This document shows, piece by piece, positions 39,867-56,053 of a stretch of DNA of 59,540 nt (position 1 is its first letter; the number at the start of each line of letters is the position of its first letter). The DNA is from Candidatus Omnitrophota bacterium (GTDB taxonomy: Bacteria; Omnitrophota; Gorgyraeia; Gygaellales; Profunditerraquicolaceae), in contig JAHIOW010000026.1 of NCBI GenBank assembly GCA_018895075.1, positions 1-59,540 of the forward strand. The letters run 5' to 3'. The notes below the pieces were generated by a model that ran no database searches, was not told where the DNA came from, and saw only the letters and a list, made by a program, of their open reading frames with translations. The position numbers were made by a program, and so were the translations under genes.

Positions 39867-40752
39867 GGTCCTCCGTGGAAGATATGATCAATTTAGGTCT
39901 TCCTACAAGCGTAATCCTTTTATCTAAGGCGCTATAAACTGCCTCATCACTATAAGAGATATTATCGCCTCTGGTAATCTTAACATTGCCCCGCGCAATA
40001 ATTTTCTCAATGCTACTACCCATAAGAGTGGGTGTCTGGCCGGATTCGCTTGTATCTTTACTTGTATCCTCATCAGACATAGTAAAATAGACATCCATAA
40101 TATCGCAATCAATCCCTATAGTTTGACTATCTACATTAACATTATTATTAAATACAGCCACATTTTTCTCATAATCTATCTGGAGTGGCCCGTCGCAGGT
40201 AATAATCGTCTTATTTCTATCCAGCATCCCTGATTGCCCCTGGTTCTTAATGCTGCTGACCTCTACAGTGACGTCTTTCTCCAAAGTCACTTTATTTAAA
40301 TCAGGTTGCCCTGTAGCGCCGGAGGCAGTGCTAAATAAATTATCTTTTTCTATATTGACTACATCTTTTGTGGTAACTATCTTATTTTTCCTGTCCCAGT
40401 CTAAAGAATCCGTGGTCAGCCTGGCGCCTGAGGAGCTAGTGATGATCACATTTTGCTCTAAATGCACCTTGCCTTCTATCTTATCAAAATCGCCTCTATC
40501 GGCCGTAAGGTTGACATCCTCTTTTTCCTCGTAAATATTACCTATTATGTCTTTAAGTTTTACGACTTCGGTAAATATATCCGCGGATTTAGCTGAAAGG
40601 TCCCAGGTCTTTTTGCCTTTATCGCCGTAGCCGGCCAGTGAAAAATCATTGATCTGCTGATCCGCTTCTTGAAGGTTTTCTTGTCCTCGCGCTTCTAAAA
40701 CAAAAACCATCAGGAATACAAAACTAAAAACTAATCCGCACCTTTTAAACAT
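39844..40752 (-). CDS. OstA/LptA-family periplasmic LPS-transport protein, possibly a combined LptC/LptA
   Basis: N-terminal hydrophobic anchor/signal, repetitive beta-jellyroll-like OstA sequence. Occupies the lptC-lptA slot between kdsC and lptB. Confidence 0.65.
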   Translation of the reverse strand: MFKRCGLVFSFVFLMVFVLEARGQENLQEADQQINDFSLAGYGDKGKKTWDLSAKSADIFTEVVKLKDIIGNIYEEKEDVNLTADRGDFDKIEGKVHLEQNVIITSSSGARLTTDSLDWDRKNKIVTTKDVVNIEKDNLFSTASGATGQPDLNKVTLEKDVTVEVSSIKNQGQSGMLDRNKTIITCDGPLQIDYEKNVAVFNNNVNVDSQTIGIDCDIMDVYFTMSDEDTSKDTSESGQTPTLMGSSIEKIIARGNVKITRGDNISYSDEAVYSALDKRITLVGRPKLIISSTEDLDASFGN

Positions 40753-41272
40753 TATAAAGTCCCACCATCTCTTTCCATCTTCCTTTAGCCTTGAGGATTA
40801 ACTCTGCAACCTCGCGCACCGCGCCCCTGCCGCCTTCTCTGGCGGTAATATAGTGGCTGGCCTGTTTAATATCGGCTACAGCATTAAATACCGCTATCGC
40901 AAGACCTGCTCTCTTCATCAGGCACAGGTCTACAAGATCATCTCCCACAAAACAAACCTCATCCATAGCCACCTTGTGCCTTTTTAAGATTTTTTCTAGA
41001 ACCGCACTCTTGGGAGAGATATTCTCAAATACTGCCTCCACCTGCATATCTCTGGCGCGGGGCCTGATTGCCCGCGAACCCTTGGCAGTGATCAGGACGG
41101 TCTTTATTCCTGCCTTTTTTAAAAGATACACCCCTAATCCGTCGTGGACATCAAAAAATTTCATATCGCATCCCCGACAATCATATATTATCCTGCCGTC
41201 GGTCAATACGCCATCTACGTCTAAGATTAAAAGTTTTATTTTCTTTGCCTTATTTAATATAGATTCTTCCAT
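40745..41272 (-). CDS. kdsC: 3-deoxy-D-manno-octulosonate 8-phosphate phosphatase
   Basis: HAD motif LILDVDGVLTDG; 175 aa. Confidence 0.9.
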   Translation of the reverse strand: MEESILNKAKKIKLLILDVDGVLTDGRIIYDCRGCDMKFFDVHDGLGVYLLKKAGIKTVLITAKGSRAIRPRARDMQVEAVFENISPKSAVLEKILKRHKVAMDEVCFVGDDLVDLCLMKRAGLAIAVFNAVADIKQASHYITAREGGRGAVREVAELILKAKGRWKEMVGLYNV

Positions 41273-41274
41273 GA

Positions 41275-42237
41275 TTACACTAACCCTGCCTTTAATAAAT
41301 CCTGCACATCTAAAAGGCCCAGGGGCCGGCCATTTCTGTCCACCACCGGCACCTCATCAATCTTTTTCTCCTGTAATATCCGCATCGCCTCTTGAGCCAG
41401 CATTGCCGGCCTTACGGTTGTGGGATTCTTGGTCATTGCCTCTTTGACTTTACGCTGGGCGAGATTGGAGTCTATCTCCATGTGCCGGCGTAAATCGCCA
41501 TCAGTAAAGATACCCACCAGTTTCCCCTTTTTATTTACTATGGAAGCGCTCCCTGCCCGGGCCCGGGTAATCTTAAACAAGACTTCTGAGACTTTTTTCT
41601 CTTGCCCAACCACAGGATTAGCCGCTCCCTTGCGCATAATATCTTCTACTTTTAAAAGCAGCCTTTTACCTAAAAGGCCTCCCGGATGATAAAAGGCGAA
41701 ATCTTTTTCTTTAAAACCTTTTAACTCTAAAAGGCAGACTGCCAATGCATCTGACATGGCCAGCATGGCAGTAGTAGAAGTGGTAGGGGCTAACCCTAAA
41801 GGACAGGCCTCTTTTTTTACATATGTATTTAAGACCGCATCGCTGTAACGCGCCAGGATAGAGGTAATATTACCGGTGATGGCAATGATCTTTGCGCCTA
41901 TCTTCTTTAATAGAGGCAATAATTTTTTAATCTCATCCGTCTGCCCGCTATTGGATATAATTATTACCATGTCCTCTTTGGTTACCCTGCCTAAATCACC
42001 GTGTATAGCTTCTGCGGAATGTAAAAATAAACTCGGTGTCCCGGTAGAAGAGAGTGTGGCGGATAGCTTCTGGCCGATAATCCCTGCCTTACCCATCCCA
42101 CTTACTACTACTCTGCCTCGAGAGGCTAAAATAAGCTGTATTGCCTTCTGAAAAGAACGATTTATATTCTTTTTAAGGCCCATGATTGCCTCAGACTCAA
42201 TATCTAAAACCTCTCTTGCGCGCTTGATTACATTCAT
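41275..42237 (-). CDS. kdsD: Arabinose-5-phosphate isomerase (SIS plus tandem CBS)
   Basis: SIS motif GMGKAG; C-terminal CBS pair. Confidence 0.92.
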   Translation of the reverse strand: MNVIKRAREVLDIESEAIMGLKKNINRSFQKAIQLILASRGRVVVSGMGKAGIIGQKLSATLSSTGTPSLFLHSAEAIHGDLGRVTKEDMVIIISNSGQTDEIKKLLPLLKKIGAKIIAITGNITSILARYSDAVLNTYVKKEACPLGLAPTTSTTAMLAMSDALAVCLLELKGFKEKDFAFYHPGGLLGKRLLLKVEDIMRKGAANPVVGQEKKVSEVLFKITRARAGSASIVNKKGKLVGIFTDGDLRRHMEIDSNLAQRKVKEAMTKNPTTVRPAMLAQEAMRILQEKKIDEVPVVDRNGRPLGLLDVQDLLKAGLV

Positions 42238-43070
42238 GTCGCTTTACCAGCTCCATAAGTTATGGCTTCATTTATTTTTTTAACCTGTTTTAAAAGTTCC
42301 TCTAATTCCTTTAAGTTAACCATATTCTGGCTATCGGATAATGCCTTATCCGGTTGAAGATGGACCTCTAAAAACAGGCCATCGCAACCAAAGGCTACTG
42401 CTGCCCGTGAAAGCCCTGAAACAAATTCACGCTGCCCGCCCGAAGAGGCGCCTCTACCGCCGGGCAGCTGCACACTATGCGTAGCATCATAAATAACCGG
42501 ATAACCAAACTCTCTTATAATACCCAGACTCCTGAAATCTGAAACTAAATTATTGTAACCAAAAGAGGTCCCGCGTTCGGTAATCAAGATTTTTTTATTG
42601 CCTGTGGATTCTGCTTTACGAATTATAGGCAGGATATCCCGGGGCGCTAAGAATTGGCCCTTTTTAATATTGATTATCCTGCCTGTTTTGGCTGCGGCAA
42701 CCACGATATCAGTCTGCCGGCATAAAAACGCCGGTATCTGGATTATATCCAAAACTTTTTTTGCCTCTTCAATCTCTTCGCAACAATGAATATCAGATAA
42801 TACAGGGACCTTTATCTTCTGTTTTATCTTATTAAGTACCTCCAGGCCTTTTTTCAGGCCCGGCCCGCGATAAGAATCTATGGAAAGCCGGTTTGCCTTA
42901 TCAAAACTGGATTTAAAAATAAAGGGAATGCCTAATCTGTGCGTAATCTCTTTTATCCTTTTTGCAGTCTCTAAACAATTTATCTCGGATTCAATCACGC
43001 AAGGGCCGGCAATCAAAATTAGCGGGCTGCCACCGCCGATCTTAATCTTACCCAGTCTAATCTGCGGCAT
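42234..43070 (-). CDS. kdsA: 3-deoxy-8-phosphooctulonate synthase
   Basis: KSSFDKANR and DATHSVQLPGG motifs. Confidence 0.94.
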   Translation of the reverse strand: MPQIRLGKIKIGGGSPLILIAGPCVIESEINCLETAKRIKEITHRLGIPFIFKSSFDKANRLSIDSYRGPGLKKGLEVLNKIKQKIKVPVLSDIHCCEEIEEAKKVLDIIQIPAFLCRQTDIVVAAAKTGRIINIKKGQFLAPRDILPIIRKAESTGNKKILITERGTSFGYNNLVSDFRSLGIIREFGYPVIYDATHSVQLPGGRGASSGGQREFVSGLSRAAVAFGCDGLFLEVHLQPDKALSDSQNMVNLKELEELLKQVKKINEAITYGAGKAT

Positions 43071-43809
43071 TATCTTGCCTCTTTCTTAAATATTCTTTTA
43101 CCTTTTCTAAATCCTCGGGGGTATCTACGCCAAGGGTGTCATATTTGGTCTCAATAACCTTGATGCGAAAACCTGCTTCTAAAATCCTCAGTTGTTCCAA
43201 GCATTCTATTTTCTCTAATTCGGAAACGGACAAATTTTTATAGGTAAACAGAAAATCCTTTGTGTAACCGTATAGGCCGATGTGTTTGTAATAAACTCCG
43301 GATTCGGCTTTAGAATTTTGCGCCCTAAAAGGAATTGCTGCCCGGGAAAAATAAAGTGCGAAATTATCTTTATCCACCACCACCTTAACCACATTAGGGT
43401 CTTCTATGTCTTGGGGATTTTCTATCTTCCTCATCAGGGTGGCTATGGAGAGGGATTTATCATCTAATAATGCCTGGGCCAGGGTATCAATCATCACCGG
43501 ATGAATCAATGGCTCATCGGCCTGGATATTTATTACTATTTTTACATCTATGGGGTTTACCACTTCGCTAATCCTGTCCGAGCCAGAACCGTGACCCTGG
43601 GCAGTTAAAATAACCTTGGCCCCAAACTCCCTGGCTATATTAGCTACCCTTTCATCATCGCAGGCAATAATTAAATCATCTAAAAGAAAGGCCTCTTTTG
43701 CCCGTTCCCAGACGTGTTGTAACATGGGCCTGCCTAAGATATCCGCCAGGACCTTACCCTCAAATCTACTCGAGGAATACCTTGCGGGTATTACTCCGAT
43801 AACATCCAT
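43057..43809 (-). CDS. kdsB: 3-deoxy-manno-octulosonate cytidylyltransferase
   Basis: IPARYSSSRFEGK N-terminus; 250 aa. Confidence 0.93.
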   Translation of the reverse strand: MDVIGVIPARYSSSRFEGKVLADILGRPMLQHVWERAKEAFLLDDLIIACDDERVANIAREFGAKVILTAQGHGSGSDRISEVVNPIDVKIVINIQADEPLIHPVMIDTLAQALLDDKSLSIATLMRKIENPQDIEDPNVVKVVVDKDNFALYFSRAAIPFRAQNSKAESGVYYKHIGLYGYTKDFLFTYKNLSVSELEKIECLEQLRILEAGFRIKVIETKYDTLGVDTPEDLEKVKEYLRKRQDNAAD

Positions 43810-43851: not shown

Positions 43852-44895
43852 CTATCTACTCAGGGTGTCACCTTGGGGAGCGTCCCCAATTCTTTGCAGA
43901 AGTTCTTTCCTGGTAACCACAGCTGTGCCTACCTTGCCTACTACAATACCCGCGGCAAAGTTAGCCAGGTGTGCTGCCTTGAGTTTCGCTGTTGTACAAC
44001 AAAGTCCTAATGTAAAAGCGCTTATTACCGTATCTCCTGCTCCGGAGACATCAAAAACCTCCTGGGCAACCGTGGGTATATGCTTCATGCGGCCATCTTT
44101 CTCAAAAAGTTTCATCCCCTGTTCACCCAGAGTCACCAGCATCGAATCTAATTCTAAATATTTAAGGATCTGAAATGCTGCGGAATCAATGTCTTGGTCG
44201 GTAAATAATCTGTCGTTATTTAATTGGAATCTATTCGTAGTGTCCTTAATCTTTAGGTTCCTTATCGCGTTTTCCAGTTCCTTGCGATTGGGGGTAATGG
44301 AAGTAACCCCGCGATAATATTGAAAATGCTCTTCTTTAGGGTCAACGGTGATAATCTTTTTGTGCTCATGCGCCAAGGAAATAAGTCTTTCCAGCAAATA
44401 CATATTGATTACGCCCTTGCCGTAATCCTCAATAACAATAGCATCAAACCCATCTATATTTTTTTGGATAAACCTGATAATCTTTTGGTTTAATTCTTTA
44501 GGAAGCGCGTCCGTGTGTTCCCAGTCAACCCTGACTACCTGCTGGTGCCCGGCAATGATGCGTGTTTTTAGCGTGGTGTGTCTTTTAGGCTCGATAAAGA
44601 TGCCTTTAGTATTTATCCTGCTTTTGCGCAATTGCGCAAATAAAATGTCGGTATTCTCGTCTTTGCCGCTAACCCCCACTAAACAAACTTCTCCATCAAG
44701 TGAACGGATGTTATTGGCTGCATTAGCCGCGCCTCCCGGCAGATAAGTCCTTTTCTTCGCCCAGATTACCGGCACAGGCGCCTCAGGCGAGATTCTATCC
44801 ACGTCACCCCAGATGTATCCATCCAGAATCAAATCTCCTACAACCAATATCTTGGCCTGAGGAAATTTTTTTACTATCGCCCTTAGTCCCTTCAT
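43852..44895 (-). CDS. hldA: D-glycero-beta-D-manno-heptose-7-phosphate kinase (RfaE domain I / PfkB family only; no adenylyltransferase domain)
   Basis: PfkB motifs (GGAANAA; DVSGAGDTV). About 347 aa with no domain II. The last ~13 codons lie in a 30-bp dispersed repeat. Confidence 0.8.
   Translation of the reverse strand: MKGLRAIVKKFPQAKILVVGDLILDGYIWGDVDRISPEAPVPVIWAKKRTYLPGGAANAANNIRSLDGEVCLVGVSGKDENTDILFAQLRKSRINTKGIFIEPKRHTTLKTRIIAGHQQVVRVDWEHTDALPKELNQKIIRFIQKNIDGFDAIVIEDYGKGVINMYLLERLISLAHEHKKIITVDPKEEHFQYYRGVTSITPNRKELENAIRNLKIKDTTNRFQLNNDRLFTDQDIDSAAFQILKYLELDSMLVTLGEQGMKLFEKDGRMKHIPTVAQEVFDVSGAGDTVISAFTLGLCCTTAKLKAAHLANFAAGIVVGKVGTAVVTRKELLQRIGDAPQGDTLSR
43862..43891. repeat. 30-bp element AGGGTGTCACCTTGGGGAGCGTCCCCAATT (type C)
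   Basis: 29/30 identical to 16289..16318. Forms the 3' coding end of the heptose kinase gene. Confidence 0.9.
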
Positions 44896-45821
44896 AGCTT
44901 TTCTATTATCGCCTGGGCGAGCAAGGGAAACATTATCTCATGATGGCCAATAATATAATAACCCTTTCCGCCGCTCATTACCGGACGAGACACAACATTT
45001 TGCAGGGGCCGATAATGATAGATCATATCAAAATTGGCAGTCACAAAGTCTTTGACTTTATCGCCTAAATTACGGGCTAAATTCAGGGCCTTTAAAAATA
45101 CCTCTGGCAGTATTACTGCAGAACCAAAATTTAATGCCACCCCCCCATTATTCAACCTGGATATATTTTCTACGAGCATCTGAAAATCCCTCAGGCTTCC
45201 TTCGCCGGTAAGCGCGGCATCAAAAGACGGATGCTGGTGTATAACGTCTGTGCCAATAGCCACGAAAACACAAAGCGGAATTTTATGTTGATAGGCCTGA
45301 TAAAGGATACTTAAATTCTTATAGCGTAATTTAGAACCGGAGATTTTATGGGCTACGGCATAGCCTAATCCCCGGCCATCCAGCACCCCTTCTTTTACTG
45401 CGTTATTTAAAAATTCCGCGGTTTCGCGGCACATTCCAAACCTACCATCGTTTAAGTTCTTACCCACATCCTCGGAAGTCCGGCCGCTAAAGGCAATCTC
45501 AAAATCATGGATTATACCTGCGCCATTTAAACAAATACAGGTAATGATTTTCTTTTTTATAAGTTCTATCAATACCGGGTTAAGGCCGGATTTTATCACA
45601 TGGGCGCCAAGCATAAAAATAACCGGCTTCTTTCTTTTATGGGCCCGAACAACCGCCTCGACTATAGCCTCTAGCTCTTTTGCTTTTAATAGGTTAGGTA
45701 AACAGTTGTAGAAACTTAAAAAACTTCTCTTACGCAGGGGCGCACGGGCAAAATCCTTAGCCCCTACTTTGCTATGCCTTTTTCTCATCGAATATGTCTT
45801 TACCTTATTTATATCTATCAT
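44892..45821 (-). CDS. Deoxyhypusine-synthase-like (DHS-fold) protein of unknown function, apparently lacking the catalytic Lys
   Basis: By-eye alignment to eukaryotic DHS at three segments. LGAHVIKSGL..LNGAGIIHD matches LGYTSNLISSG..TTAGGVEED. HKIPLCVFVAIGTD matches NHIPVFSPALTDG. FGSAVILPE sits where GGGVVKHH is. An ATG at 45821 is preferred over the TTG at 45833. Confidence 0.55.
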   Translation of the reverse strand: MIDINKVKTYSMRKRHSKVGAKDFARAPLRKRSFLSFYNCLPNLLKAKELEAIVEAVVRAHKRKKPVIFMLGAHVIKSGLNPVLIELIKKKIITCICLNGAGIIHDFEIAFSGRTSEDVGKNLNDGRFGMCRETAEFLNNAVKEGVLDGRGLGYAVAHKISGSKLRYKNLSILYQAYQHKIPLCVFVAIGTDVIHQHPSFDAALTGEGSLRDFQMLVENISRLNNGGVALNFGSAVILPEVFLKALNLARNLGDKVKDFVTANFDMIYHYRPLQNVVSRPVMSGGKGYYIIGHHEIMFPLLAQAIIEKL

Positions 45822-45875
45822 CCGAATTGACAATTATAGCATAAATCATAGCCAAATCAACTTGTATTTATTAAA

Positions 45876-45914: not shown

Positions 45915-47933
45915 CTATGCTAAAATTGAATCCGCTGCCCTTAAGACGTCTTCTACGGTTATGGCCTTAAGGCAAAGGAATTCTTTAACACAGTTGTGCG
46001 CCAGGCATTTGATGCAACCTACTTCTTTATGTAAGAACCGGTCGTTTTTTCCCGACGGCCCCCAGCGGGCGGGGCTTAGGCCTCTCTGGTTCCTGCCGAA
46101 AATAGAAATTACAGGAACGCCCACGCTTGAGGCAATATGTACCGGGCCAGAATCATTAGAGATAAATAAACTGCATCTCTTCAGCACGCTGGCTAATTGG
46201 CTAACTGAAGTCCTTGCGGCAAGATTAACCGCCGGCTGATGCATATCTTTGAGTACCTGCGAGGCCTTTATCTCGTCGCTAGAGCCGGCAATAATCAAAA
46301 CCTTAAAACCGTATTTTTCTATTAACCTGTCTGCGGCTTCAGCAAATCTCTTTGGCGGCCAGACCTTAGATATACAGCTTGCGCCCGGATGAATAGCTAA
46401 TAATTTATCGGATTTATTTATACCTTTCTGTGCAAATAATTGGTCTAACCACTCTTCTGACTCTGGCCTTATAGGCATAAACAGTTCTTTATCTGCGGGC
46501 TGAATACCTAGATATCTAACCAGGTCCAAATTGTATTCTAATTCGTGTTTACGGCCTGATTGTTTGGTGTGTTTTACCTTATCAGTAAGCAAGAATCCAA
46601 ATTTGCGGTTGTAACCTATCCTCTGCTGTATACCCGCAAAAAAGGTTACCAGATGTACGCGGTTTGCAGGATGAAGGATAAGCGCCAAATCAAACCTTTT
46701 TTTCTTTAGCTGATGAGCAAATTTAAGGGTCCCATACCAACTTTTATGTTTACCATTTTTATCGTAAATTATCACCTCATCCAAATAGGAATTACCTTCT
46801 ATTATCTCTCTGGCATAAGGGCCAACCATCATCGCTATCAAGGCGCAAGGGTACTCCTGCCTTAATGCCTTAATGACCGGAGTAGACAAAAGGACATCTC
46901 CGATTCTATCTGTGCGCACAATAAGAATACGTTTAAACTTGCTTTCGTAATTGGTAATTGGTAATTGGTAATTGGTAACTAACAACCTTCTAACTGCTGT
47001 TAATACATCCTCTACCTTTATCAGCTTCATACAGTCAAGGGTTCTGAATCTACACTGCGCCTTCTGGCAAGGCCGGCAGAAGATTTCCTTTTTCACCACC
47101 GCAAAATTATCTGACCATGGCCTGTATTTTCTCTCATTTGTCGGCCCGAACACCGCCACAACGCCAATATTTAAATAACTACCCAGATGTAATACTGCGC
47201 TATCATTAGTAATCAATAGTTTTGCCTTTTTTAGCAATGCCGCTAATTGCAATAGATTAGTTTTATTACAGAGATTCAAAATCTGCCCGGAGCATTTTTC
47301 TTTTATATACGCCGCTGTATCCCCATCTGCCTCCTCGCCCACCAATATAATTTTTGTATCTCTATTTTCTAAAAGACACTTACAAAGCCGGACAAATTTT
47401 TCTTTATCCCATCTTTTGATATGGCTCCTTGCCCCGGGTGAAACAACAACTATACTATCTTGCCCGGTTATATTATTTTCTTTTAATATTTGATTAATGT
47501 ATTCTTCATCTTCTGGCTTAATATTTAAACAGCTTTGCGCTTTGCCTGCTTTCGCGCTTTGCGCTCTATAAAGGTGCCTGTCCCTCATGTGTTCTATATT
47601 ATTAGGGGCAATCCGAAAAGGCGAAGTCCTGTATCTGGCAGGCAGAAACACGCCAAAAAGGCTGTTGCGCAAATCAACAACCATATCAAAATTTTCTTTT
47701 TTTAATTCTCTAAATAATCTTATCTTCTCCGTCAATCTTGCATGTTTATCATAAATAATGAGTTTATCTATACAGGGATTACCCTGGAATATCTCTTTTG
47801 GCCGCGGGCCTACTAAAACTGTAACCTTACTCTGCGGGAATTTTTCTCTTAAAGAATCTAAAACCGGCAAAGTCAGGATAACATCGCCTATATTGCTTAA
47901 GGTGATAAATAAAATCTTATTCGGTTTTGACAA
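45915..47933 (-). CDS. Tandem double GT9 (heptosyltransferase-family) glycosyltransferase fusion
   Basis: Two complete GT9 units, each starting K(I/R)ILxxxxxxIGDVxLxxPV and ending VEDVL..., joined by a heptamer-repeat-encoded linker. Confidence 0.85.
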   Translation of the reverse strand: MSKPNKILFITLSNIGDVILTLPVLDSLREKFPQSKVTVLVGPRPKEIFQGNPCIDKLIIYDKHARLTEKIRLFRELKKENFDMVVDLRNSLFGVFLPARYRTSPFRIAPNNIEHMRDRHLYRAQSAKAGKAQSCLNIKPEDEEYINQILKENNITGQDSIVVVSPGARSHIKRWDKEKFVRLCKCLLENRDTKIILVGEEADGDTAAYIKEKCSGQILNLCNKTNLLQLAALLKKAKLLITNDSAVLHLGSYLNIGVVAVFGPTNERKYRPWSDNFAVVKKEIFCRPCQKAQCRFRTLDCMKLIKVEDVLTAVRRLLVTNYQLPITNYESKFKRILIVRTDRIGDVLLSTPVIKALRQEYPCALIAMMVGPYAREIIEGNSYLDEVIIYDKNGKHKSWYGTLKFAHQLKKKRFDLALILHPANRVHLVTFFAGIQQRIGYNRKFGFLLTDKVKHTKQSGRKHELEYNLDLVRYLGIQPADKELFMPIRPESEEWLDQLFAQKGINKSDKLLAIHPGASCISKVWPPKRFAEAADRLIEKYGFKVLIIAGSSDEIKASQVLKDMHQPAVNLAARTSVSQLASVLKRCSLFISNDSGPVHIASSVGVPVISIFGRNQRGLSPARWGPSGKNDRFLHKEVGCIKCLAHNCVKEFLCLKAITVEDVLRAADSILA
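46947..46981. repeat. Heptamer array (GTAATTG)x4-GTAACTA forming the inter-domain linker of the GT9-GT9 fusion
   Basis: Counted directly; encodes VTNYQLPITNY. Confidence 0.9.
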
Positions 47934-48945
47934 TCTTTCTTATCTCCTCTAAAACTGCCTCTGGCGTGATGGCTTTCATACAGCGGCTATCTTTACAATT
48001 TACTGCATAACAGGGAACCTTACAGCCAACGTCTGCCTGTAAAATAGATACGTTATTTAAAGGCCATGGGCCGGTAACTAAAGGGGAGGTCGGGCCAAAA
48101 AGGGCAATTATCTTTTTTGTTCCTACGGCGTTGGCAATATGTAAAGGCCCGGTATCTGCGGTAATAAACAAATCCAGCCTCCTGCACAAGGCACCCAACT
48201 GTTTTATATTCAACTCCGCGGTTGCCAGAATAGGCTTCTTAAGCATCGATTTCTGTATCTCCTTTACCAGCGCAATATCTGAAGTACTGCCCGTAATAAT
48301 CACTTTAAATCCAGATTCAGCGATTAACCGGTCAATAAGCCTGGCCCAATAATGAGCGGGCCAGCGTTTGGGCAGCCAATTTCCTCCGGGGTTTATCCCC
48401 AGCAAAAATTCACCTTTGTTGACGGATTTACTATTTAAAAATCTGTCCACGAATGCCTCGTCTTCATCGCTGACAAAAAACTCGGCATATCTATCTTCAA
48501 CCCTTAAGCCCGCCTTTTCTATAATATTCAGGTAATAATCTATGCGGTGCAATGAGTCTCTTTTAATCGGCGCAATTTTCTGGGTCAGGAGAAAGGCGCG
48601 TTTTTTAGTGCTGTAACCGATTATCTGGGGGATACCCGCCAGCCTCATGATAAGGGCGCGGCTAAATGAACGATGTAACAAAAATACCATATCAAATTTT
48701 TTGCTTTTAAGGGATTGCACAAATCTCATTTTTTCTAAAAAGTTCCTGTGCCTGTCTTTCTCATCAAAAAGGATGATCTCATCCAGATGGGGATTGCCTT
48801 TTAAGATAAGGTAACAACGGCTGGGGATTATACAGGCGATAAAACTATCCGGGGAATTATGCCTGATATTCCTGATAACGGCTGTAGAAAACAATACATC
48901 CCCCAGCCAGTTGACATTAAAGATAAGTATGCGTTTGGCCTTCAT
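47917..48945 (-). CDS. GT9 heptosyltransferase-family glycosyltransferase
   Basis: 342 aa; RILIFNVNWLGDVLFSTAV N-terminus and DTGPLHIA motif. Confidence 0.88.
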   Translation of the reverse strand: MKAKRILIFNVNWLGDVLFSTAVIRNIRHNSPDSFIACIIPSRCYLILKGNPHLDEIILFDEKDRHRNFLEKMRFVQSLKSKKFDMVFLLHRSFSRALIMRLAGIPQIIGYSTKKRAFLLTQKIAPIKRDSLHRIDYYLNIIEKAGLRVEDRYAEFFVSDEDEAFVDRFLNSKSVNKGEFLLGINPGGNWLPKRWPAHYWARLIDRLIAESGFKVIITGSTSDIALVKEIQKSMLKKPILATAELNIKQLGALCRRLDLFITADTGPLHIANAVGTKKIIALFGPTSPLVTGPWPLNNVSILQADVGCKVPCYAVNCKDSRCMKAITPEAVLEEIRKIVKTE

Positions 48946-48947
48946 CT

Positions 48948-49742
48948 CTAATCGCTATCGCGGTGTTCCTTGATAAAAGTATAGAATCCTGAACTCTCTA
49001 TCCAGAAGACAAAGAGATTGTCACAGGTCGCGGAAATCCTTAATCTCTTTAAGGCAAATATATCATCATTAGGAAACTTTTTTCCCGGGGAAGTAGTCAC
49101 TGCCCCCTTATATCCGGCGTCTATAACTAACTGTCTTATCTGAGCATTAAAACCGCCCCCCGGATAACTGAAGATATTCACCTTCTGGCTCAATTTTTCC
49201 CGGAGGACCTTGCGGGAATCAAAAATCTCTCTCCTTAACTGTTCTTCTGACTTGATATTTGTTAATGGCTCAGGGCCCAGGGCATGGCTGCCAAAGGTAA
49301 TCAATCCGGAATCCCGCATCTGGCTAATCTCATCCCAGCTTAACCTGTCACCCCCTGGCCGTCCTACTTCATTAGTAATGATGAATATCATTGCCGGTAG
49401 ATTATATTTTTTTAAGATAGGGAAGGCATAGGTATAATTATTTTTATAGCCGTCATCAAAGGTTATCGCTACAGACTTAGGAGGGATTCTTTTTTTATGC
49501 CTGATAAGATCGGCTAACTCCTCTAAAGGCAAGACATTATAATTCTGCCTTTTTAAAAAACGCATCTGGCGCTCGAATACCTCCGCAGATACCGCCAGCC
49601 TATTTCCTGGCGCGGCGCCAGGATGAACCGAATGATACATCAGTATAGGGGCAACGTACTGGCTTTTTAGAAAAAAGCCAAAAGAAAACCCAGCAATAAA
49701 AATAACACCAAAAATACTGCTTAGGACTTTGCGTTTAGACAT
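48948..49742 (-). CDS. Polysaccharide deacetylase (NodB/CE4), membrane-anchored
   Basis: TFDDGY motif, N-terminal TM segment. Confidence 0.88.
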   Translation of the reverse strand: MSKRKVLSSIFGVIFIAGFSFGFFLKSQYVAPILMYHSVHPGAAPGNRLAVSAEVFERQMRFLKRQNYNVLPLEELADLIRHKKRIPPKSVAITFDDGYKNNYTYAFPILKKYNLPAMIFIITNEVGRPGGDRLSWDEISQMRDSGLITFGSHALGPEPLTNIKSEEQLRREIFDSRKVLREKLSQKVNIFSYPGGGFNAQIRQLVIDAGYKGAVTTSPGKKFPNDDIFALKRLRISATCDNLFVFWIESSGFYTFIKEHRDSD

Positions 49743-50824
49743 TCTGAATATACTCCTTCGGTCTCTGTAGCCATCTGTTCTCCGGAGAAATTCTGGCTGA
49801 CAAAACTCTGCGCCTGTGCTCCCAAAAACTTTCTCTTTTGCGCATCTCTAAGTAAATTTATTATTTCAGAGGATAACTGATTGCTATCCCGGGGTTCAAC
49901 CAGGATACCCGTATAATCATGCTTGATTAAACTCCTTATGCCTCCTACATCCGAACCAATAACCGCCAGGCCCTGCGCCATTGCCTCTATCAGGCTTAAA
50001 CCCAAACCTTCTTTTAAAGAAGGCATGACAAATAAATCCATAATGGAGAGTATTTCGGGCGTCTCGTAAACAGAAGGGACAAAATTTACGTTATTTTCTA
50101 TTTTTAGTTTTTGCACTAGCGCCTTAAGTTCCTTCTCCATCTTTCCTTCGCCTACAATGAGTAATTGCGCATCAGGGATTTCCTCTAAGACAGTTTTCAT
50201 TGCTTCTATCAGATAAATATGGCCCTTTACATCCGAAAGCCGGGCTACTATCCCTACTATCGGCCCCTCGCCTAATCCTAAATCTTTCTTTTTCTGTACT
50301 CTGTACTCTGCACTCTGCACTCTAAATCTGTTAACATCTATCCCATTATGGACAATGCTTATATTTTCTGCCTTAACGCCAAAATCTTCCATCAGGTGTT
50401 CTTTTACTGCCTGGCTTATAGCAATAGTCCTGTCTCCCCAACACCCAAACAATCTTCGCCAGAGCCGCGGTTTAAAAAAACCGTGGCAGGTAGAGATATG
50501 CGCCGTATGAGTCAAACTACTGAGTAAGCTTCCCAAGACCCCTGTAGTACGGCTGTTTGAATGCAGGATATCAATATTATTTCGCCTCAGCGCGCCTAAT
50601 AATTTAAATAAACTAACTACAATCTTAGGGCTAACCTCTGATTTTGTCTTCAGAGGCGCGGGGATATAGACAATACCTGCCTGGATAAATTTTGGAAGCA
50701 GCTCTCCGCCGCTGGAAGCAAGATATATATTATGGCCTTTAGCTCTTAAACCCCTGGCTAAAGTCAAAACATAACTGCTAATGCCTCCGATATTCAGATG
50801 GTTAGTAAGATAAAGAATATTCAT
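49721..50824 (-). CDS. GT4-family glycosyltransferase
   Basis: GT-B/GT4 motifs (GGISSYV; PSLKEGLGLSLIEAMA). Contains an in-frame heptamer array. Confidence 0.88.
   Translation of the reverse strand: MNILYLTNHLNIGGISSYVLTLARGLRAKGHNIYLASSGGELLPKFIQAGIVYIPAPLKTKSEVSPKIVVSLFKLLGALRRNNIDILHSNSRTTGVLGSLLSSLTHTAHISTCHGFFKPRLWRRLFGCWGDRTIAISQAVKEHLMEDFGVKAENISIVHNGIDVNRFRVQSAEYRVQKKKDLGLGEGPIVGIVARLSDVKGHIYLIEAMKTVLEEIPDAQLLIVGEGKMEKELKALVQKLKIENNVNFVPSVYETPEILSIMDLFVMPSLKEGLGLSLIEAMAQGLAVIGSDVGGIRSLIKHDYTGILVEPRDSNQLSSEIINLLRDAQKRKFLGAQAQSFVSQNFSGEQMATETEGVYSECLNAKS
50294..50328. repeat. Heptamer array (CTGTACT)x2-(CTGCACT)x2-CTAAATC, in frame within the GT4 gene
   Basis: Counted directly; encodes RVQSAEYRVQK. 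Confidence 0.9.
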
Positions 50825-50831
50825 ATTCTTT

Positions 50832-52922
50832 TTATTTCAACAATTTATCAACCGCCTCTAACACCTCTTCAGAACTTATTAACTCCATACACGTTCTAGT
50901 CTTGCACTTTGACTTATAACAGGGGCTGCAAGCTAAATCTTTCTTAATCACGATACAATCCTTTGCCGGCGGAAGATGGCGCCTGGGGTCTGTAGGCCCA
51001 AAAAGGGCAATAAAAGGCGTACCCACAGCGCAAGCGATATGTAAAGGCGCAGAATCTGGCGAGATATACACACTACATCTTTTAATCAGACAAGCGAGTT
51101 GATTAACCGTAGTCTTGCCACAGGCATTAATGAATTTTGTGCTTCTGAGCATATTCATTAAGGCAGAGGCAGAGTTTAAATCTCTACCTGTGCCGGTAAT
51201 AACAAAACGTATATCCCGGTGGGATAATTCCTGACAAAGTTTAGTCAGCTGCCTTAAAGGCCAATTCTTGGTAGTCCATTTCGGGCTGGCGCTGATGTTT
51301 ATCCCCACCAGTCTCTGGGTGCTGCTTATCCATTCAGAACTGAGGAATTGCTCTATATAATTTTCGTCTTCCGGAGTTGGCCAAAGTTCTAAATTAGGAT
51401 TCTCTAAATTTATGCCTAACATCTGCAGTATCCTGAATTGATGGGTTACGGGGCCTATGGCTGGTTTCTCATCTTTAACCCGATGGTTAAGAAGCAATCC
51501 CAGCTTGTTATTGCCATAGCCGTAACGAGTTAGAGCCAGTGAAAGGGCACAGAGGATATGGCTCTTACGGTTATTCTGCAGGTCAACCACCATATCGAAA
51601 TTCTTCTCCCTTAAAATACGCCCCCATTGCATCAGCCCCTTTATCCCCTTATCCTTGTTTTTAAAATCAGAGACTAATAATTCGTCAATATAGGGACAGG
51701 TTAAAAGCGCCTCTTTACATTCCTGGCTGGTCAGAAAACTAATCTTGTAATTAGGGGGGAATTTATCTCTTATCGCCTTTATCGCCGGCGTAGAGAGAAT
51801 AATATCGCCCAGAGAGCTAAACTTGATAATCAAAATCTTAAAATTCTCCAGCGCCTGCCTGTAAACATTGAGGGTATTTTCTACCATAAGCCCGACATTA
51901 TATTTTTCTTTAACCTTTTTATAGGCGTTCTCTGTTAACTTTACGGCCAGTTCTTTATCCTTAAATATCTTTATTGCTGCCTCGGCTATACCTTTAGGGT
52001 CAGAAGGAGGAACAAGCAATCCTGTCTGGCCATCTTCAATAATATCAATCACGCCTCCTACTCTGGTCGCTACTACGGGAACGCCGCAGGCCTGGGCCTC
52101 TATAATTACCCTGCCGAATGCCTCATGGGTGGTTGTGGAAAGCACCAAAAGGTCCAGACGCCCCAGGATTGCCGGAATATCCCTCTGCACCCCTAAGAAT
52201 TGGGTAATATGCCAAAGTCCCAATCTTTTTACCAGAACCTCTACCTGTTCCTTATAAGCCCCTTTAGAAGCAGGTGCATCTCCTACTATCCATATCTTAA
52301 GCCGCGGGATAACCCTGTATACTTCGGCCATGGCCTTAATAAAATATAGATGTCCTTTTATGGGAGTAATCCTTGCGATTATCCCCACATTAAATTCACT
52401 TCCTCTTTTCTCATCCCGGGCTACGTATTTAAATCTTTCTAAATCTACGCTGCGCGGTATTAATTTTATGCGCTCATAAGGAACGCTAAAATCATCGATC
52501 ATATGCCGGGCAATAACATTGCTTAAGACAATCACGCTCTTTGCCCAGCCCATCACGTAACCAAAAGGGTGCTTTTTATAATAACCATGGCAGGTAGTAA
52601 TGAATACCCTGGCTGTCTTTCTGCTGGCAAAGTAGGCAATCCAAGCCGGAACCCGGGAACGCGCATGCACAATATCTATCTCTTCTTTTTTAATAATTTC
52701 AGCTAAGCGGGGAATAGCCATGATCATAGTAAATAAGGATTTTTTATGTACGGGTAATTGGTAATGTTTAGCGCCGAAAGACTCTAAGTCCTTAACCATC
52801 TCTCCGCCGCTTGAGACCACGACTGCCTTATGTCCCTGCCTGATGAGATGACGGGCCAGATCCACTGTCCCGGTCTCAACCCCGCCTACATTTAATTCCG
52901 GCAATATCTGTAATATATTCAT
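50832..52922 (-). CDS. GT4-GT9 two-domain glycosyltransferase fusion
   Basis: N-terminal half is GT4 (NVGGVETGT; EAFGRVIIEAQA). C-terminal half is GT9 (ILIIKFSSLGDIILSTPAI; DSAPLHIA). Confidence 0.85.
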   Translation of the reverse strand: MNILQILPELNVGGVETGTVDLARHLIRQGHKAVVVSSGGEMVKDLESFGAKHYQLPVHKKSLFTMIMAIPRLAEIIKKEEIDIVHARSRVPAWIAYFASRKTARVFITTCHGYYKKHPFGYVMGWAKSVIVLSNVIARHMIDDFSVPYERIKLIPRSVDLERFKYVARDEKRGSEFNVGIIARITPIKGHLYFIKAMAEVYRVIPRLKIWIVGDAPASKGAYKEQVEVLVKRLGLWHITQFLGVQRDIPAILGRLDLLVLSTTTHEAFGRVIIEAQACGVPVVATRVGGVIDIIEDGQTGLLVPPSDPKGIAEAAIKIFKDKELAVKLTENAYKKVKEKYNVGLMVENTLNVYRQALENFKILIIKFSSLGDIILSTPAIKAIRDKFPPNYKISFLTSQECKEALLTCPYIDELLVSDFKNKDKGIKGLMQWGRILREKNFDMVVDLQNNRKSHILCALSLALTRYGYGNNKLGLLLNHRVKDEKPAIGPVTHQFRILQMLGINLENPNLELWPTPEDENYIEQFLSSEWISSTQRLVGINISASPKWTTKNWPLRQLTKLCQELSHRDIRFVITGTGRDLNSASALMNMLRSTKFINACGKTTVNQLACLIKRCSVYISPDSAPLHIACAVGTPFIALFGPTDPRRHLPPAKDCIVIKKDLACSPCYKSKCKTRTCMELISSEEVLEAVDKLLK

Positions 52923-52931
52923 CTCTTATCT

Positions 52932-52967
52932 AGGGACACCCTTTCAGCTAAAGCTAAGAGTGTCCCT
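52932..52967. repeat. AGGGACACCCTT ... AAGAGTGTCCCT hairpin (type A)
   Basis: Spacer between the LpxL-ELM1 and GT4-GT9 genes. Confidence 0.85.
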
Positions 52968-52970
52968 AAT

Positions 52971-53007
52971 AGGGGACACTCTGCCGATTGGCACAAAGGG
53001 TGTCCCT
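52971..53007. repeat. AGGGGACACTCT ... AAAGGGTGTCCCT imperfect hairpin (type A)
   Basis: Second hairpin in the same spacer; same two-hairpin layout as 4099..4184. Confidence 0.75.
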
Positions 53008-53025
53008 GAAACTTAAAAGTTGATT

Positions 53026-55026
53026 TCAGAGTGTCCTTACTAAGGCTTCCTCCACAATAACACTATCTTTTAGTATATGTATCTGCGGCTTTTGCTTCCA
53101 TAGTCTCTCAATAACCGAGGATATCTGGTAAGGCTGGCAGAGATAGATATATTTTTTCTGGGCCATATAATTTAAAAAATAATTATGCCGGCGATTAACC
53201 CTGGACTTAAAAACTATTGCGTAGCGCCCGCTTGCAGCCGCCTCGGAAACCATGGAGATACTCTCCGGAGAAACAATAACTATCTGGCTTTTGGCTAATA
53301 TCCCGCCTACGGCAAAAGGAAGATTCCGCTCATTGGCGATGATAAGAAATTTACAAGGCGGATAACTTTTAAATTCTTGTTTCACCAGTTCTTCAATCTC
53401 TTTAGATGTGCGGCGCGATGTGGTCACTAAAATCTGGCCATCTAGCCTGCCTAAAGATGCCTTGAGCTGATTTATAATCTGCCTGAAGACATGCCTGCTT
53501 AATTGAAAATCCCTGGTATCTCCTCCAATCAAAAACCCGATGACTAATTTTTTATCGGTCTGGGCATAAAAATCCAGCTCAGCCGCAGAAGAGGCAAGAT
53601 GCTCCTCATCTATCAGGTTCAATGCCCCTTCAGTGACTGTTACATTCTTTCTCTTTGGGGGCCGGTCATGTTTTGGCATCACCACCAGGTCAAAGCGCCT
53701 GGTGCTTAAAACAGAAGGCCGCATAATCACTATAGACTTAGCCAGATTTTCTCTGGAGACTATAAAATTAATTGCCGCCAGAGACGAACCGCAGGATATC
53801 ACGATATCGGGTTTTAGGCTGCACAGGCGCCTGTAGGTATTCTCTTCTAAAAGTTTCTTAAGGCACCAGAGGCAACCCTGACAGCGATATTTACCTGACA
53901 GGCAGCAAGCAAACATCAGGCAGTAGCGGGAAAATTGGCCTTTACCCTGCCTGCCCTGCCTCGCCGGCAGGCGGGCGGCAGGCAGGAATTTTACCTCTAA
54001 AATCTCAATATTGGCATTTATACCTTTATCTTTAAGGCAACCGGCAGCTACCTTAAGCAGGGACTGCGATTGCCTAAGGTGGCCTATCTTTCCATCGCTC
54101 AAAACCAAAATATTTTTTTCTTTTGTATGCTTCCATATCTTATAAGACCAGAGGTATTCCTTGGGGTATTTTACGATATATCTTTCAAAAGTCTGCACCA
54201 GTCTTCCTAAATTATCCCTTATATCTATATCCTCGTTGCCTGTCTTTTTAATCTCAAGGGGTGGCTCAATAATAACCTTAAGATGCGGCCCTCTCTGCCG
54301 TAGATAAAAGGCAGGGATAATAGTGGCGCCGTACTTTAAGGCCAGTCTTATCGCCCCGGAAGGCATAGAGGCATCTTTGCCGAAGAATTTCACTAGCGCA
54401 CCACTTCTTCCACCTTGATCTACAGTCATGCCTATGGCCTCATTATTCTTAAGTACCTGTATTAACTGCCTGGTTTGATTCTGCCTCTGGATTACCCGAG
54501 TACCTTTTTGACTGCGATATAGATTAAGCAACCGGTTTAAACGTGGATACCTTTGCTCACGGACAAAGAAATTAAAAGTAAACCCCAGGTGCGCCGCAAT
54601 GACATTAGAGAGTTCCCAATTACCTTCGTGCATCGCGACAATAATCACACCTTTGCCTTTTTTAAAACCCTCTTTTATATGCTCTAAGCCCTCAAACTCT
54701 ATATATTTAATGATGTATGCCTGATCAATTAAGGGGATGAGAAATATCTCAATAAGATTCTGGCCGAAGGTGCGGTAAAAATCTTTGGTGAGTTTGCGTA
54801 ATTGAGCAGGCATTAGTTTATCGCCAACTGCGGCCTTAATATTGGAGTAGGCAATTGCCTTGTGTTTGAGGTCAAAATAATAAAATAATTCGCCAAAACA
54901 GGCCCCTAAAGCAAAACTGACCCCTAAGGGCAACTTTCTTATCAGCGGGCCGTATACTCTAAAGAGAATACAACTTAAGTAGTCTATTATAGAATCTTTC
55001 TTCATCTGAGATAATCTGTAATTCAA
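53026..55026 (-). CDS. lpxL: Lipid A late acyltransferase (LpxL/HtrB-like) fused to an ELM1/DUF1022 (COG3660) domain
   Basis: The N-terminal ~300 aa is LpxL-like (HEGNWE, TVDQGG). The C-terminal part starts ILVLSDGKIGHLRQSQSL, typical of the ELM1 family, with LIGGDTRDF and TTSRRT. Confidence 0.75.
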   Translation of the reverse strand: MNYRLSQMKKDSIIDYLSCILFRVYGPLIRKLPLGVSFALGACFGELFYYFDLKHKAIAYSNIKAAVGDKLMPAQLRKLTKDFYRTFGQNLIEIFLIPLIDQAYIIKYIEFEGLEHIKEGFKKGKGVIIVAMHEGNWELSNVIAAHLGFTFNFFVREQRYPRLNRLLNLYRSQKGTRVIQRQNQTRQLIQVLKNNEAIGMTVDQGGRSGALVKFFGKDASMPSGAIRLALKYGATIIPAFYLRQRGPHLKVIIEPPLEIKKTGNEDIDIRDNLGRLVQTFERYIVKYPKEYLWSYKIWKHTKEKNILVLSDGKIGHLRQSQSLLKVAAGCLKDKGINANIEILEVKFLPAARLPARQGRQGKGQFSRYCLMFACCLSGKYRCQGCLWCLKKLLEENTYRRLCSLKPDIVISCGSSLAAINFIVSRENLAKSIVIMRPSVLSTRRFDLVVMPKHDRPPKRKNVTVTEGALNLIDEEHLASSAAELDFYAQTDKKLVIGFLIGGDTRDFQLSRHVFRQIINQLKASLGRLDGQILVTTSRRTSKEIEELVKQEFKSYPPCKFLIIANERNLPFAVGGILAKSQIVIVSPESISMVSEAAASGRYAIVFKSRVNRRHNYFLNYMAQKKYIYLCQPYQISSVIERLWKQKPQIHILKDSVIVEEALVRTL
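53946..53986. repeat. (CCTG)n-GCCGGC-(CAGG)n-type imperfect palindrome, in frame within the ELM1 domain
   Basis: Encodes LPAARLPARQGRQG. Confidence 0.8.
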
Positions 55027-56053
55027 TCCGCAAAACCAATATTGGTAAACGGTAAACGGTAAACGGTAAACGCTGGAGTCTTACAGCGTCTTTTTCAGTA
55101 GTAACAATTGTATCTATATTTTTGTTTTGTGACTGCTGGATTATATGCTCTAAATCTTTCTGCAGATAATGATGGTGGTCAGGGAATCTAAAAGATAAAC
55201 CAATATTGATACCCAGACTTATAACTAAATTTTCAAATGAATCGGGGTCGCCAATACCAGAGACCAAAGTTACAGTCTTTCCTTTTAATGCCTCAGGTGG
55301 TAATAACTTATCCACTTGGCCAATCTTATAGAAACCCAATGGCTTATGTATTGATTCTACTATGAGTGCTGAAGGATTAATGGAACTCAAAAAATCTTTT
55401 ATATCCTGGATATCGGGGTTAAGGTTGGTCTTGGTTAAGACAAATATGTCTGCCTGCTTAAGCGCAGAAAGCGGTTGACGTAAGATACCCCGCGGTAGCA
55501 GATGCTGGTTGCCAAAGGGGTCAGTGGCATCAATAGCTACAATCTCGGAGTCTTTTTTTATCTTCCATTGCTGCAGGCCGTCGTCTAAGATAACTGTATC
55601 CACGCCATAATCATCTCTGGCCCGATGAGCGGCGCGGATTCTATTTGCATCCACCAACACCGGTATATCTTTTAAGTGCGTCTTTAACATATAGGCCTCA
55701 TCACCCATAGTTTCACAACTGACGACTGACGACTCCTGCCTGCCGGCAGGCATGGGACGACTGACGACTTTCTTCTTATATCCTCTACTTAAGATCGCTA
55801 CCTTATGCCCCTGTTTGTCTAAATACCTGGCTATAAATTCTACTAAAGAGGTCTTACCTGTCCCTCCTAAGGTAACATTGCCTATACTGATAACCCTGCA
55901 ATCCAGGCGGTGAGGATTAAGGCCAGAGATAAAGATTAACATCCTTACCAGCAGGCCATAGATAAAAGAAAAGATAAGTAGAAAAATCTTTAAGATACTG
56001 GCAATAAATCCCTTATATTTATCTGTAGCCAGATTATAGAGATAGGCTTTCAT
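54959..56053 (-). CDS. lpxK: Tetraacyldisaccharide 4'-kinase
   Basis: GNVTLGGTGKTS P-loop, LSRGY, GDEA motifs. Carries two repeat-derived in-frame insertions. Confidence 0.9.
   Translation of the reverse strand: MKAYLYNLATDKYKGFIASILKIFLLIFSFIYGLLVRMLIFISGLNPHRLDCRVISIGNVTLGGTGKTSLVEFIARYLDKQGHKVAILSRGYKKKVVSRPMPAGRQESSVVSCETMGDEAYMLKTHLKDIPVLVDANRIRAAHRARDDYGVDTVILDDGLQQWKIKKDSEIVAIDATDPFGNQHLLPRGILRQPLSALKQADIFVLTKTNLNPDIQDIKDFLSSINPSALIVESIHKPLGFYKIGQVDKLLPPEALKGKTVTLVSGIGDPDSFENLVISLGINIGLSFRFPDHHHYLQKDLEHIIQQSQNKNIDTIVTTEKDAVRLQRLPFTVYRLPILVLRIELQIISDEERFYNRLLKLYSL
55044..55071. repeat. Heptamer array (GGTAAAC)x4, in frame near the lpxK 3' end
   Basis: Counted directly; encodes LPFTVYRLP. 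Confidence 0.9.
55731..55779. repeat. Composite element: 14-bp direct repeat GACGACTGACGACT flanking the CCTGCCTGCCGGCAGGCA palindrome, in frame within lpxK
   Basis: Direct repeats at 55731..55744 and 55766..55779. Encodes VVSRPMPAGRQESSVVS in the variable loop after LSRGY. Confidence 0.9.

Follow-up and report, generated by a model that had tools for sequence, protein, structure and literature searches.

The window analyzed here (i.e., the whole stretch of 59,540 nt of contig JAHIOW010000026.1, assembly GCA_018895075.1) belongs to a Candidatus Omnitrophota bacterium whose assembly comprises 73 contigs and 1.05 Mb at 88.3% completeness. It carries a cluster of lipopolysaccharide (LPS) genes, one of which encodes, in a single frame, a late lipid A acyltransferase domain of the LpxL type followed by an ELM1-family domain (LpxL-ELM1). 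Every gene across 39-56 kb of the window lies on the minus strand, in the order lpxK, LpxL-ELM1, GT4-GT9, GT4, CE4, GT9, GT9-GT9, a GSU2086-family gene, hldA, kdsB, kdsA, kdsD, kdsC, lptC and lptB; that is, the region forms the core of a co-directional LPS super-operon of ~17 kb (Table 1), and its content is that of ordinary LPS biosynthesis. Domains were called with Pfam and NCBIfam profiles at their curated cut-offs, and the Pfam scores of the cluster domains are so far over these cut-offs that chance is excluded. A preliminary description of this DNA had listed the domain arrangements GT9-GT9, GT9, CE4, GT4, GT4-GT9 and LpxL-ELM1 together with kdsABCD; Pfam returned exactly the same arrangements and NCBIfam confirmed kdsB, kdsA, kdsD and kdsC downstream. 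The further statement that such fusions are foreign to the waa cluster of Escherichia coli (E. coli) and Salmonella also held, the E. coli enzymes all being separate proteins.

Table 1. Coordinates of the features discussed in the text (positions in the window; scores from profile searches unless stated otherwise).
Feature	Position	Strand	Evidence or remark
lpxK, tetraacyldisaccharide 4'-kinase	54959-56053	-	PF02606 270 bits; TIGR00682 195 bits (cut-off 92)
LpxL-ELM1 gene	53026-55026	-	PF03279 residues 24-299, 166 bits; PF06258 residues 401-628, 153 bits (cut-off 27)
LpxL late lipid A acyltransferase domain (N-terminal half)	54127-55005	-	PF03279
ELM1/GtrOC1/KdoT-family GT-B glycosyltransferase domain (C-terminal half)	53026-54126	-	PF06258
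In-frame insertion of ~14-17 aa (LPAARLPARQGRQGKGQ) in an ELM1 surface loop	53935-53985	-	Absent from 19 relatives; unique to this genome
SRRT motif (S530-R531-R532-T533 of the 659-aa protein)	53407-53418	-	Alignments
GT4-GT9 fusion, 696 aa (GT4b residues 1-360, GT9d residues 361-696)	50832-52922	-	Pfam: GT4 12-335, GT9 434-675
GT4a, stand-alone GT4 glycosyltransferase	49721-50824	-	PF00534 151 bits; PF13439 100 bits
CE4 polysaccharide deacetylase	48948-49742	-	PF01522 97 bits
GT9c, heptosyltransferase-type	47917-48945	-	PF01075 126 bits; TIGR02195 141 bits (cut-off 134.6)
GT9a-GT9b fusion, 672 aa	45915-47933	-	Two PF01075 units, 250 bits in all
Heptamer array, (GTAATTG)x4.6 on the + strand; whole GT9a-GT9b linker VTNYQLPITNY	46947-46978	-	Tandem Repeats Finder score 64, 100% matches
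GSU2086-family protein, deoxyhypusine-synthase-like fold	44892-45833	-	NF052581 412 bits (cut-off 250)
hldA, D-glycero-beta-D-manno-heptose-7-phosphate kinase (rfaE domain I only)	43852-44895	-	TIGR02198 366 bits (cut-off 345)
kdsB	43057-43809	-	NCBIfam equivalog model over cut-off
kdsA	42234-43070	-	NCBIfam equivalog model over cut-off
kdsD	41275-42237	-	NCBIfam equivalog model over cut-off
kdsC	40745-41272	-	NCBIfam equivalog model over cut-off
lptC	39844-40752	-	NCBIfam equivalog model over cut-off
lptB	39141-39866	-	NCBIfam equivalog model over cut-off

For LpxL-ELM1, the ATG at 55005, which yields a protein of 659 aa in agreement with the public protein record P0001, is a more likely start than the TTG at 55026, and the beginning of the gene overlaps the 3' end of lpxK by 47 nt, an overlap that relatives show as well. 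The catalytic H-x4-E motif of the LpxL half is intact, with H126, W130 and E131 invariant in an alignment of 35 homologues; the genome encodes two further LpxL paralogues. The ELM1 half, when modeled on its own with AlphaFold2 (mean predicted local distance difference test, pLDDT, 92.2; predicted template modeling score, pTM, 0.89), adopts a full GT-B fold that aligned with GT-B enzymes at Z of 16-20 across residues 1-361, Foldseek matches including MurG, MGD1 and Aquifex WaaA (2xci). A sequence search of the PDB with this domain returned nothing at E <= 1, and hhalign aligned it with a canonical stand-alone ELM1-family protein at 99.8% probability with the motifs in register. The model of the whole 659-aa protein was also of high confidence (pLDDT 89, pTM 0.87); in it, the last LpxL element passes directly into the first GT-B strand, and, because no flexible linker intervenes, the model suggests a fixed two-site enzyme.

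The SRRT motif of the ELM1 domain stands in the context TTSRRTS, its S-R-R being invariant in the window and 19 relatives and followed by T in 19 of the 20 sequences and by S in the remaining one, and the N-terminal D-x4-H as well as the HD, GG and SxSMxSE motifs are invariant or nearly so in the relatives. The spacing pattern of D-x4-H and HD is the same as that of D8/H13 and H109/D110 in KdoT, a transferase of 3-deoxy-D-manno-oct-2-ulosonic acid (Kdo) in Acinetobacter baumannii (A. baumannii).

The window domains were mapped onto stop-to-stop frames at 20 syntenic loci that represent the same family and many further families of Omnitrophota, and gene order was kept throughout. LpxL and ELM1 were fused at 19 of these loci (one of which, L032, is cut by a contig end), GT4b and GT9d at all 20, and GT9a and GT9b at the eight same-family loci that carry the pair plus four others, with two overlapping or adjacent genes at seven loci, a state that differs between families. 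The fusions are real and conserved across Omnitrophota. The exception for LpxL-ELM1 was a closed genome (G141) in which LpxK and ELM1 share one frame with no stop between them and three LpxL paralogues all stand alone elsewhere. The LpxK-ELM1 frame of that genome (L036:2902-5055, + strand) is 718 aa long, with ~20 residues between the two domains and no LpxL domain.

The wider databases gave a similar picture. More than 1100 LpxL-ELM1 fusions were found in the protein database, and among the best 120 all those with a name were Omnitrophota/Omnitrophica; in the ESM Atlas, the fused architecture occurred in Omnitrophota clusters only. A scan of genome contigs with the ELM1 alignment yielded 576 relatives, and the 80 retained were all Omnitrophota-labeled or mislabeled, Omnitrophota-like metagenome-assembled genomes (MAGs), a result that is uninformative about other phyla. 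A full-text literature search for KdoT together with LpxL found a single paper (JBC 2025) and no description of an LpxL-ELM1 fusion; hence, as far as the literature could be searched, a phylum-wide LpxL-KdoT fusion is undescribed.

What such a fusion might do can be approached from A. baumannii. A full-text search for DUF1022 found no paper. Proteins with the Pfam domain Mito_fiss_Elm1 have been predicted to be glycosyltransferases of the lipooligosaccharide outer core in this species, namely GtrOC1, encoded by the first gene of the locus, and GtrOC14, 19 and 22 (PMC4172580), and in strain 17978 the first gene of the locus, A1S_2903, is genetically required for the third Kdo (PMC10936431). In vitro, KdoT is a cytidine monophosphate-Kdo (CMP-Kdo) transferase that puts KdoIII on Kdo2-lipid IVA independently of WaaA, favors a tetra-acylated substrate and is inactive on lipid IVA without Kdo; its activity needs the second Arg of SRRT, the single mutants D8A, H13A, H109A and D110A remained active, and a Rickettsia homologue complements an A. 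baumannii KdoT mutant (PMC12856342). We equate A1S_2903 (KdoT) with GtrOC1 since each occupies the first position in the ilvE-aspS outer-core locus.

Against this background, LpxL-ELM1 is probably a bifunctional late acyltransferase and KdoT-like transferase, because the substrate of LpxL, Kdo2-lipid IVA, is also the molecule to which KdoT transfers Kdo. The joining of ELM1 to LpxL at all but one of the syntenic loci, and to LpxK at the other, provides Rosetta-stone support (i.e., association by fusion) for this assignment. Other LpxL fusions in the ESM Atlas, which are leads from automatic clustering only, join LpxL to GT9 (a Verrucomicrobiota cluster) and to WaaA (a Pseudomonadota cluster); together with LpxK-ELM1, they indicate that enzymes handling the same Kdo-lipid A intermediate get fused. 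Very likely, the ELM1 domain transfers a sugar at the stage of Kdo-lipid A, and the balance tips slightly toward CMP-Kdo as its donor. Hence, the explanation that we favor overall, and with reasonable if not strong confidence, is an LPS super-operon with a bifunctional LpxL-ELM1, the ELM1 half of which is most likely a third-Kdo transferase.

It is important to note that several points weigh against this explanation. SRRT is also present in the canonical stand-alone ELM1 protein, that is, it is family-wide, and therefore the motif does not single out Kdo as the donor; the putative orthology to KdoT rests on a common Pfam family and common motifs, not on a tree; the LPS of Omnitrophota is predicted here from genes; and A. 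baumannii has further ELM1-family outer-core paralogues, GtrOC14, 19 and 22 (PMC4172580). Alternatively, the ELM1 domain might act at the Kdo-lipid A stage with a donor other than Kdo, either attaching the first core sugar that is not Kdo or decorating lipid A. The family-wide occurrence of SRRT would fit such a role, as would the several A. baumannii paralogues in outer-core loci, which are predicted to form other linkages, and the outcome of the fold searches, where only generic GT-B relatives were found (UDP-N-acetylglucosamine 2-epimerases, MurG, MGD1 and plant UGT-type glycosyltransferases) and no donor-specific family stood out. However, the only family member characterized in vitro transfers strictly from CMP-Kdo and is complemented by a distant Rickettsia homologue, the Kdo carboxylate has been proposed as the ligand of the conserved Arg pair, and the operon itself holds kdsB, kdsA, kdsD and kdsC. 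We thus regard a non-Kdo donor as unlikely, though less so than the alternatives below.

Much less probable is a non-catalytic ELM1 domain that would serve as a scaffold or regulatory module and tether LpxL to other envelope machinery, similar to plant ELM1, which is an adaptor protein. The activity retained by each of the four single KdoT mutants mentioned above could be read in this direction; however, the invariant residues of the domain align with GT-B donor and acceptor motifs, SRRT, whose Arg is required in KdoT, is kept, and purified KdoT is catalytic alone.

The preliminary description had also noted that neither WaaA nor LpxB is encoded beside lpxK and had proposed that the ELM1 domain or one of the GT9 domains may therefore supply a non-canonical step. 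Its observation is correct within the window, where Pfam and NCBIfam searches revealed no gene for either enzyme. In the rest of the genome, a canonical waaA was found on contig C57 (PF04413 205 bits, 425-aa frame), while LpxB (PF02684) had no match in this incomplete assembly. LpxB is, however, encoded by 149 of the 151 Omnitrophota genomes sampled (9/9 in the same family), and the ELM1 domain by 148 of the 151; of the 150 ELM1 matches listed, ~135 lie in open frames of 599-850 aa. Since the two coexist in Omnitrophota genomes, ELM1 is no replacement for LpxB. In the closest relative among the sampled loci (G055), the neighbors of lpxB are rpsB, a gene for an MsbA-like ABC transporter and one from the amino-acid (UMP) kinase family. 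When the open reading frames of 13 kb around this lpxB were compared with the genome studied here by tblastn, nearly all were unmatched, that of ribosomal protein S2 included, the only matches being weak and at paralogue level; a second relative gave the same picture. Because ribosomal protein S2 is universal and cannot truly be absent, the lpxB region was not assembled, i.e., the missing lpxB is an assembly gap.

Consequently, the idea that an ELM1 or GT9 domain replaces an absent WaaA or LpxB, for which the lack of a PF02684 match in the genome and of both genes next to lpxK would speak, is highly improbable: waaA is present, the relatives with LpxB also carry the fusion, the entire lpxB neighborhood including rpsB is missing from the assembly, and KdoT is inactive on lipid IVA without Kdo. 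ELM1 as an LpxB substitute was rejected on these grounds, and the impression of a genome without lpxB or waaA is corrected. What stands of the proposal is that ELM1, as a KdoT relative, probably does supply a non-canonical step, just not one that makes up for a missing WaaA or LpxB. As for the claimed unusualness of the cluster, waaA lies elsewhere in the genome, lpxB is phylum-wide, the fusions are common in the phylum and GT4-GT9 occurs in other phyla, yet none of these fusions has been characterized.

The remaining transferases of the cluster belong to families GT9 and GT4. Three proteins scored over the cut-off of TIGR02195, namely GT9-GT9 (271 bits, with the best stretch on GT9b), GT9c (141) and GT4-GT9 (135, with the best stretch on GT9d); RfaQ-type models scored best for GT9a, under their cut-offs, and the WaaC-specific TIGR02193 was under its cut-off for every GT9 unit, two on contig C28 included. 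With 26-36% identity among them, the four GT9 units of the cluster are, as judged from their sequences, old paralogues; GT4a and GT4b share 30%. The four GT9 units (window 45915-52922) carry in their C-terminal ~40 aa a four-cysteine motif, C-x2-3-C-x4-5-C-x5-6-C (e.g., CSPCYKSKCKTRTC), which may be a zinc knuckle and is not known from E. coli WaaC or WaaF. The GT4-GT9 architecture was also found in Aminicenantota, Armatimonadota and phage clusters of the ESM Atlas, and proteins of ~700-760 aa that combine GT9 and GT4 are common in its phage (Uroviricota) clusters.

The linker between GT9a and GT9b is hypervariable across loci (11-20 aa) and consists of a heptamer array in three same-family genomes (L026 and L030 among them), with units CAATTAC, CCAACTG and GAATTCA. 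More in-frame heptamer arrays occur in the window at 47532-47565, 50293-50323 and 55044-55072, that is, inside GT9a, GT4a and the LpxK C-terminus. That the fusions are assembly or gene-calling artefacts (lost stops or frameshifts in a draft MAG), as the slippage-prone type of sequence at the GT9a-GT9b junction might suggest, has next to no probability and was rejected, since the same fusions recur in 12 to 20 independently assembled genomes, some of them closed, the linkers are in frame and varied in sequence, and the LpxL-ELM1 model is one continuous folded protein.

CE4, GT4a and the GSU2086-family gene are optional cluster members: CE4 was present at 12 and missing from eight of the 20 loci, GT4a was missing from four, and the GSU2086-family gene was found at the same position in six. 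The product of the latter gene, which sits between the GT9 genes and hldA, has weak similarity to deoxyhypusine synthase. Beyond the operon are housekeeping genes, tig and clpP, followed by genes for an aminotransferase, D-3-phosphoglycerate dehydrogenase and others. Elsewhere in the genome (C28:690-6199, loci L006 and L008), two more GT9 genes flank a gene for a ManC-like nucleotidyltransferase without the C-terminal isomerase part; they may constitute a second module, dependent on GDP-sugars, for the core or an O-chain.

Two further observations concern the ELM1 domain. The LPAARLPARQGRQGKGQ insertion coincides with the only loop of the model at pLDDT <50, and is encoded by an imperfect palindrome rich in GC (CCTGCC.../...GGCAGG); the insertion resembles the genome's hairpin repeats, copied here in frame. 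In addition, the Foldseek matches to the ELM1 model include chains of the Tetrahymena respiratory complex I or supercomplex (8gym_T1, 8b6f_A0 and 7tgh_T1), a structural likeness that hints at the recruitment of a GT-B or ELM1-like protein by the Tetrahymena complex.

Taken together, the following route of core assembly can be proposed. LpxK would form lipid IVA, to which WaaA would attach Kdo from CMP-Kdo supplied by KdsA, KdsB, KdsC and KdsD. A rigid, bifunctional LpxL-ELM1 would then act twice on Kdo2-lipid IVA, with the LpxL domain attaching a secondary acyl chain and the ELM1 domain extending the Kdo region by one sugar, most likely a third Kdo transferred from CMP-Kdo in the manner of A. 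baumannii KdoT. GT4b-GT9d, GT4a with CE4, GT9c and GT9a-GT9b would subsequently build a heptose-rich inner core from adenosine diphosphate-heptose (ADP-heptose), and LptB and LptC would export the product. The genome has the genes for ADP-heptose (hldA within the cluster; on contig C53, gmhA and rfaE domain II), and such a core is therefore the probable product of the four clustered GT9 units together with the pair on contig C28. GT4a and the CE4 deacetylase would give a hexosamine branch, one that would be optional because GT4a and CE4 are missing from part of the loci. In genomes as small as these (1 to 2 Mb), the fusions themselves may couple successive steps.

The role of bacterial ELM1-like proteins was unclear until 2024-2025, and their known functional range consists of Acinetobacter and one Rickettsia homologue. 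A phylum-wide fusion to LpxL represents independent comparative support for the ELM1 family working at the Kdo2-lipid IVA node and would extend the split Kdo pathway to a deep-branching, uncultured phylum. Further, LpxL-ELM1 would offer a natural bifunctional enzyme for structural and mechanistic study, and the cluster provides a first gene-level picture of the Omnitrophota LPS core, predicted to be heptose-rich with an optional hexosamine branch. It is intriguing to hypothesize, with the chances evenly poised in our estimation, that WaaA-independent third-Kdo transfer is an ancestral, near-universal trait of Omnitrophota that is hard-wired in a rigid LpxL-KdoT (LpxK-KdoT in one lineage), linking the secondary acylation of a Kdo2-lipid IVA molecule to the extension of its Kdo.

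Finally, the cluster can be compared with known systems. Similar to the waa (rfa) system of E. coli and Salmonella, it combines LpxL, GT9 heptosyltransferases, GT4 core transferases and the supply of ADP-heptose and CMP-Kdo; however, the waa cluster (LpxL, WaaA, WaaC, WaaF, WaaQ) consists of separate enzymes, E. coli has neither an ELM1-family member nor CE4, and its transferases do not share an operon with lpxK, the kds genes and the lpt genes, whereas the Omnitrophota genome has four GT9 units in the cluster plus the two on contig C28. For the putative hexosamine branch, Klebsiella WabN/WabH is a deacetylase and glycosyltransferase pair that places glucosamine (GlcN) in the core, and the A. 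baumannii 2901/2900 pair, likewise a deacetylase and a glycosyltransferase, installs core GlcN (PMC10936431). The likeness lies in a gene of the polysaccharide-deacetylase family next to a GT4 gene in a core cluster; the difference is that it is solely adjacency that suggests the GT4a-CE4 pairing here. With KdoT, the ELM1 domain has in common PF06258, the GT-B fold, the SRRT, HD and D-x4-H motifs, and a location within LPS core genes with a GT4 gene and a deacetylase gene nearby in both organisms. In contrast, KdoT is a stand-alone protein of ~35 kDa while the Omnitrophota domain is the C-terminal half of a 659-aa fusion with LpxL (with LpxK in one genome) and has ~40 aa inserted between its N-terminal and HD motifs, and the host core is predicted to be heptose-rich in Omnitrophota whereas Acinetobacter lacks heptose. 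Parallels in architecture are the LpxL-GT9 and LpxL-WaaA fusions, which likewise join a late acyltransferase to a glycosyltransferase acting just before or after it on Kdo-lipid A, but with a partner domain other than ELM1.

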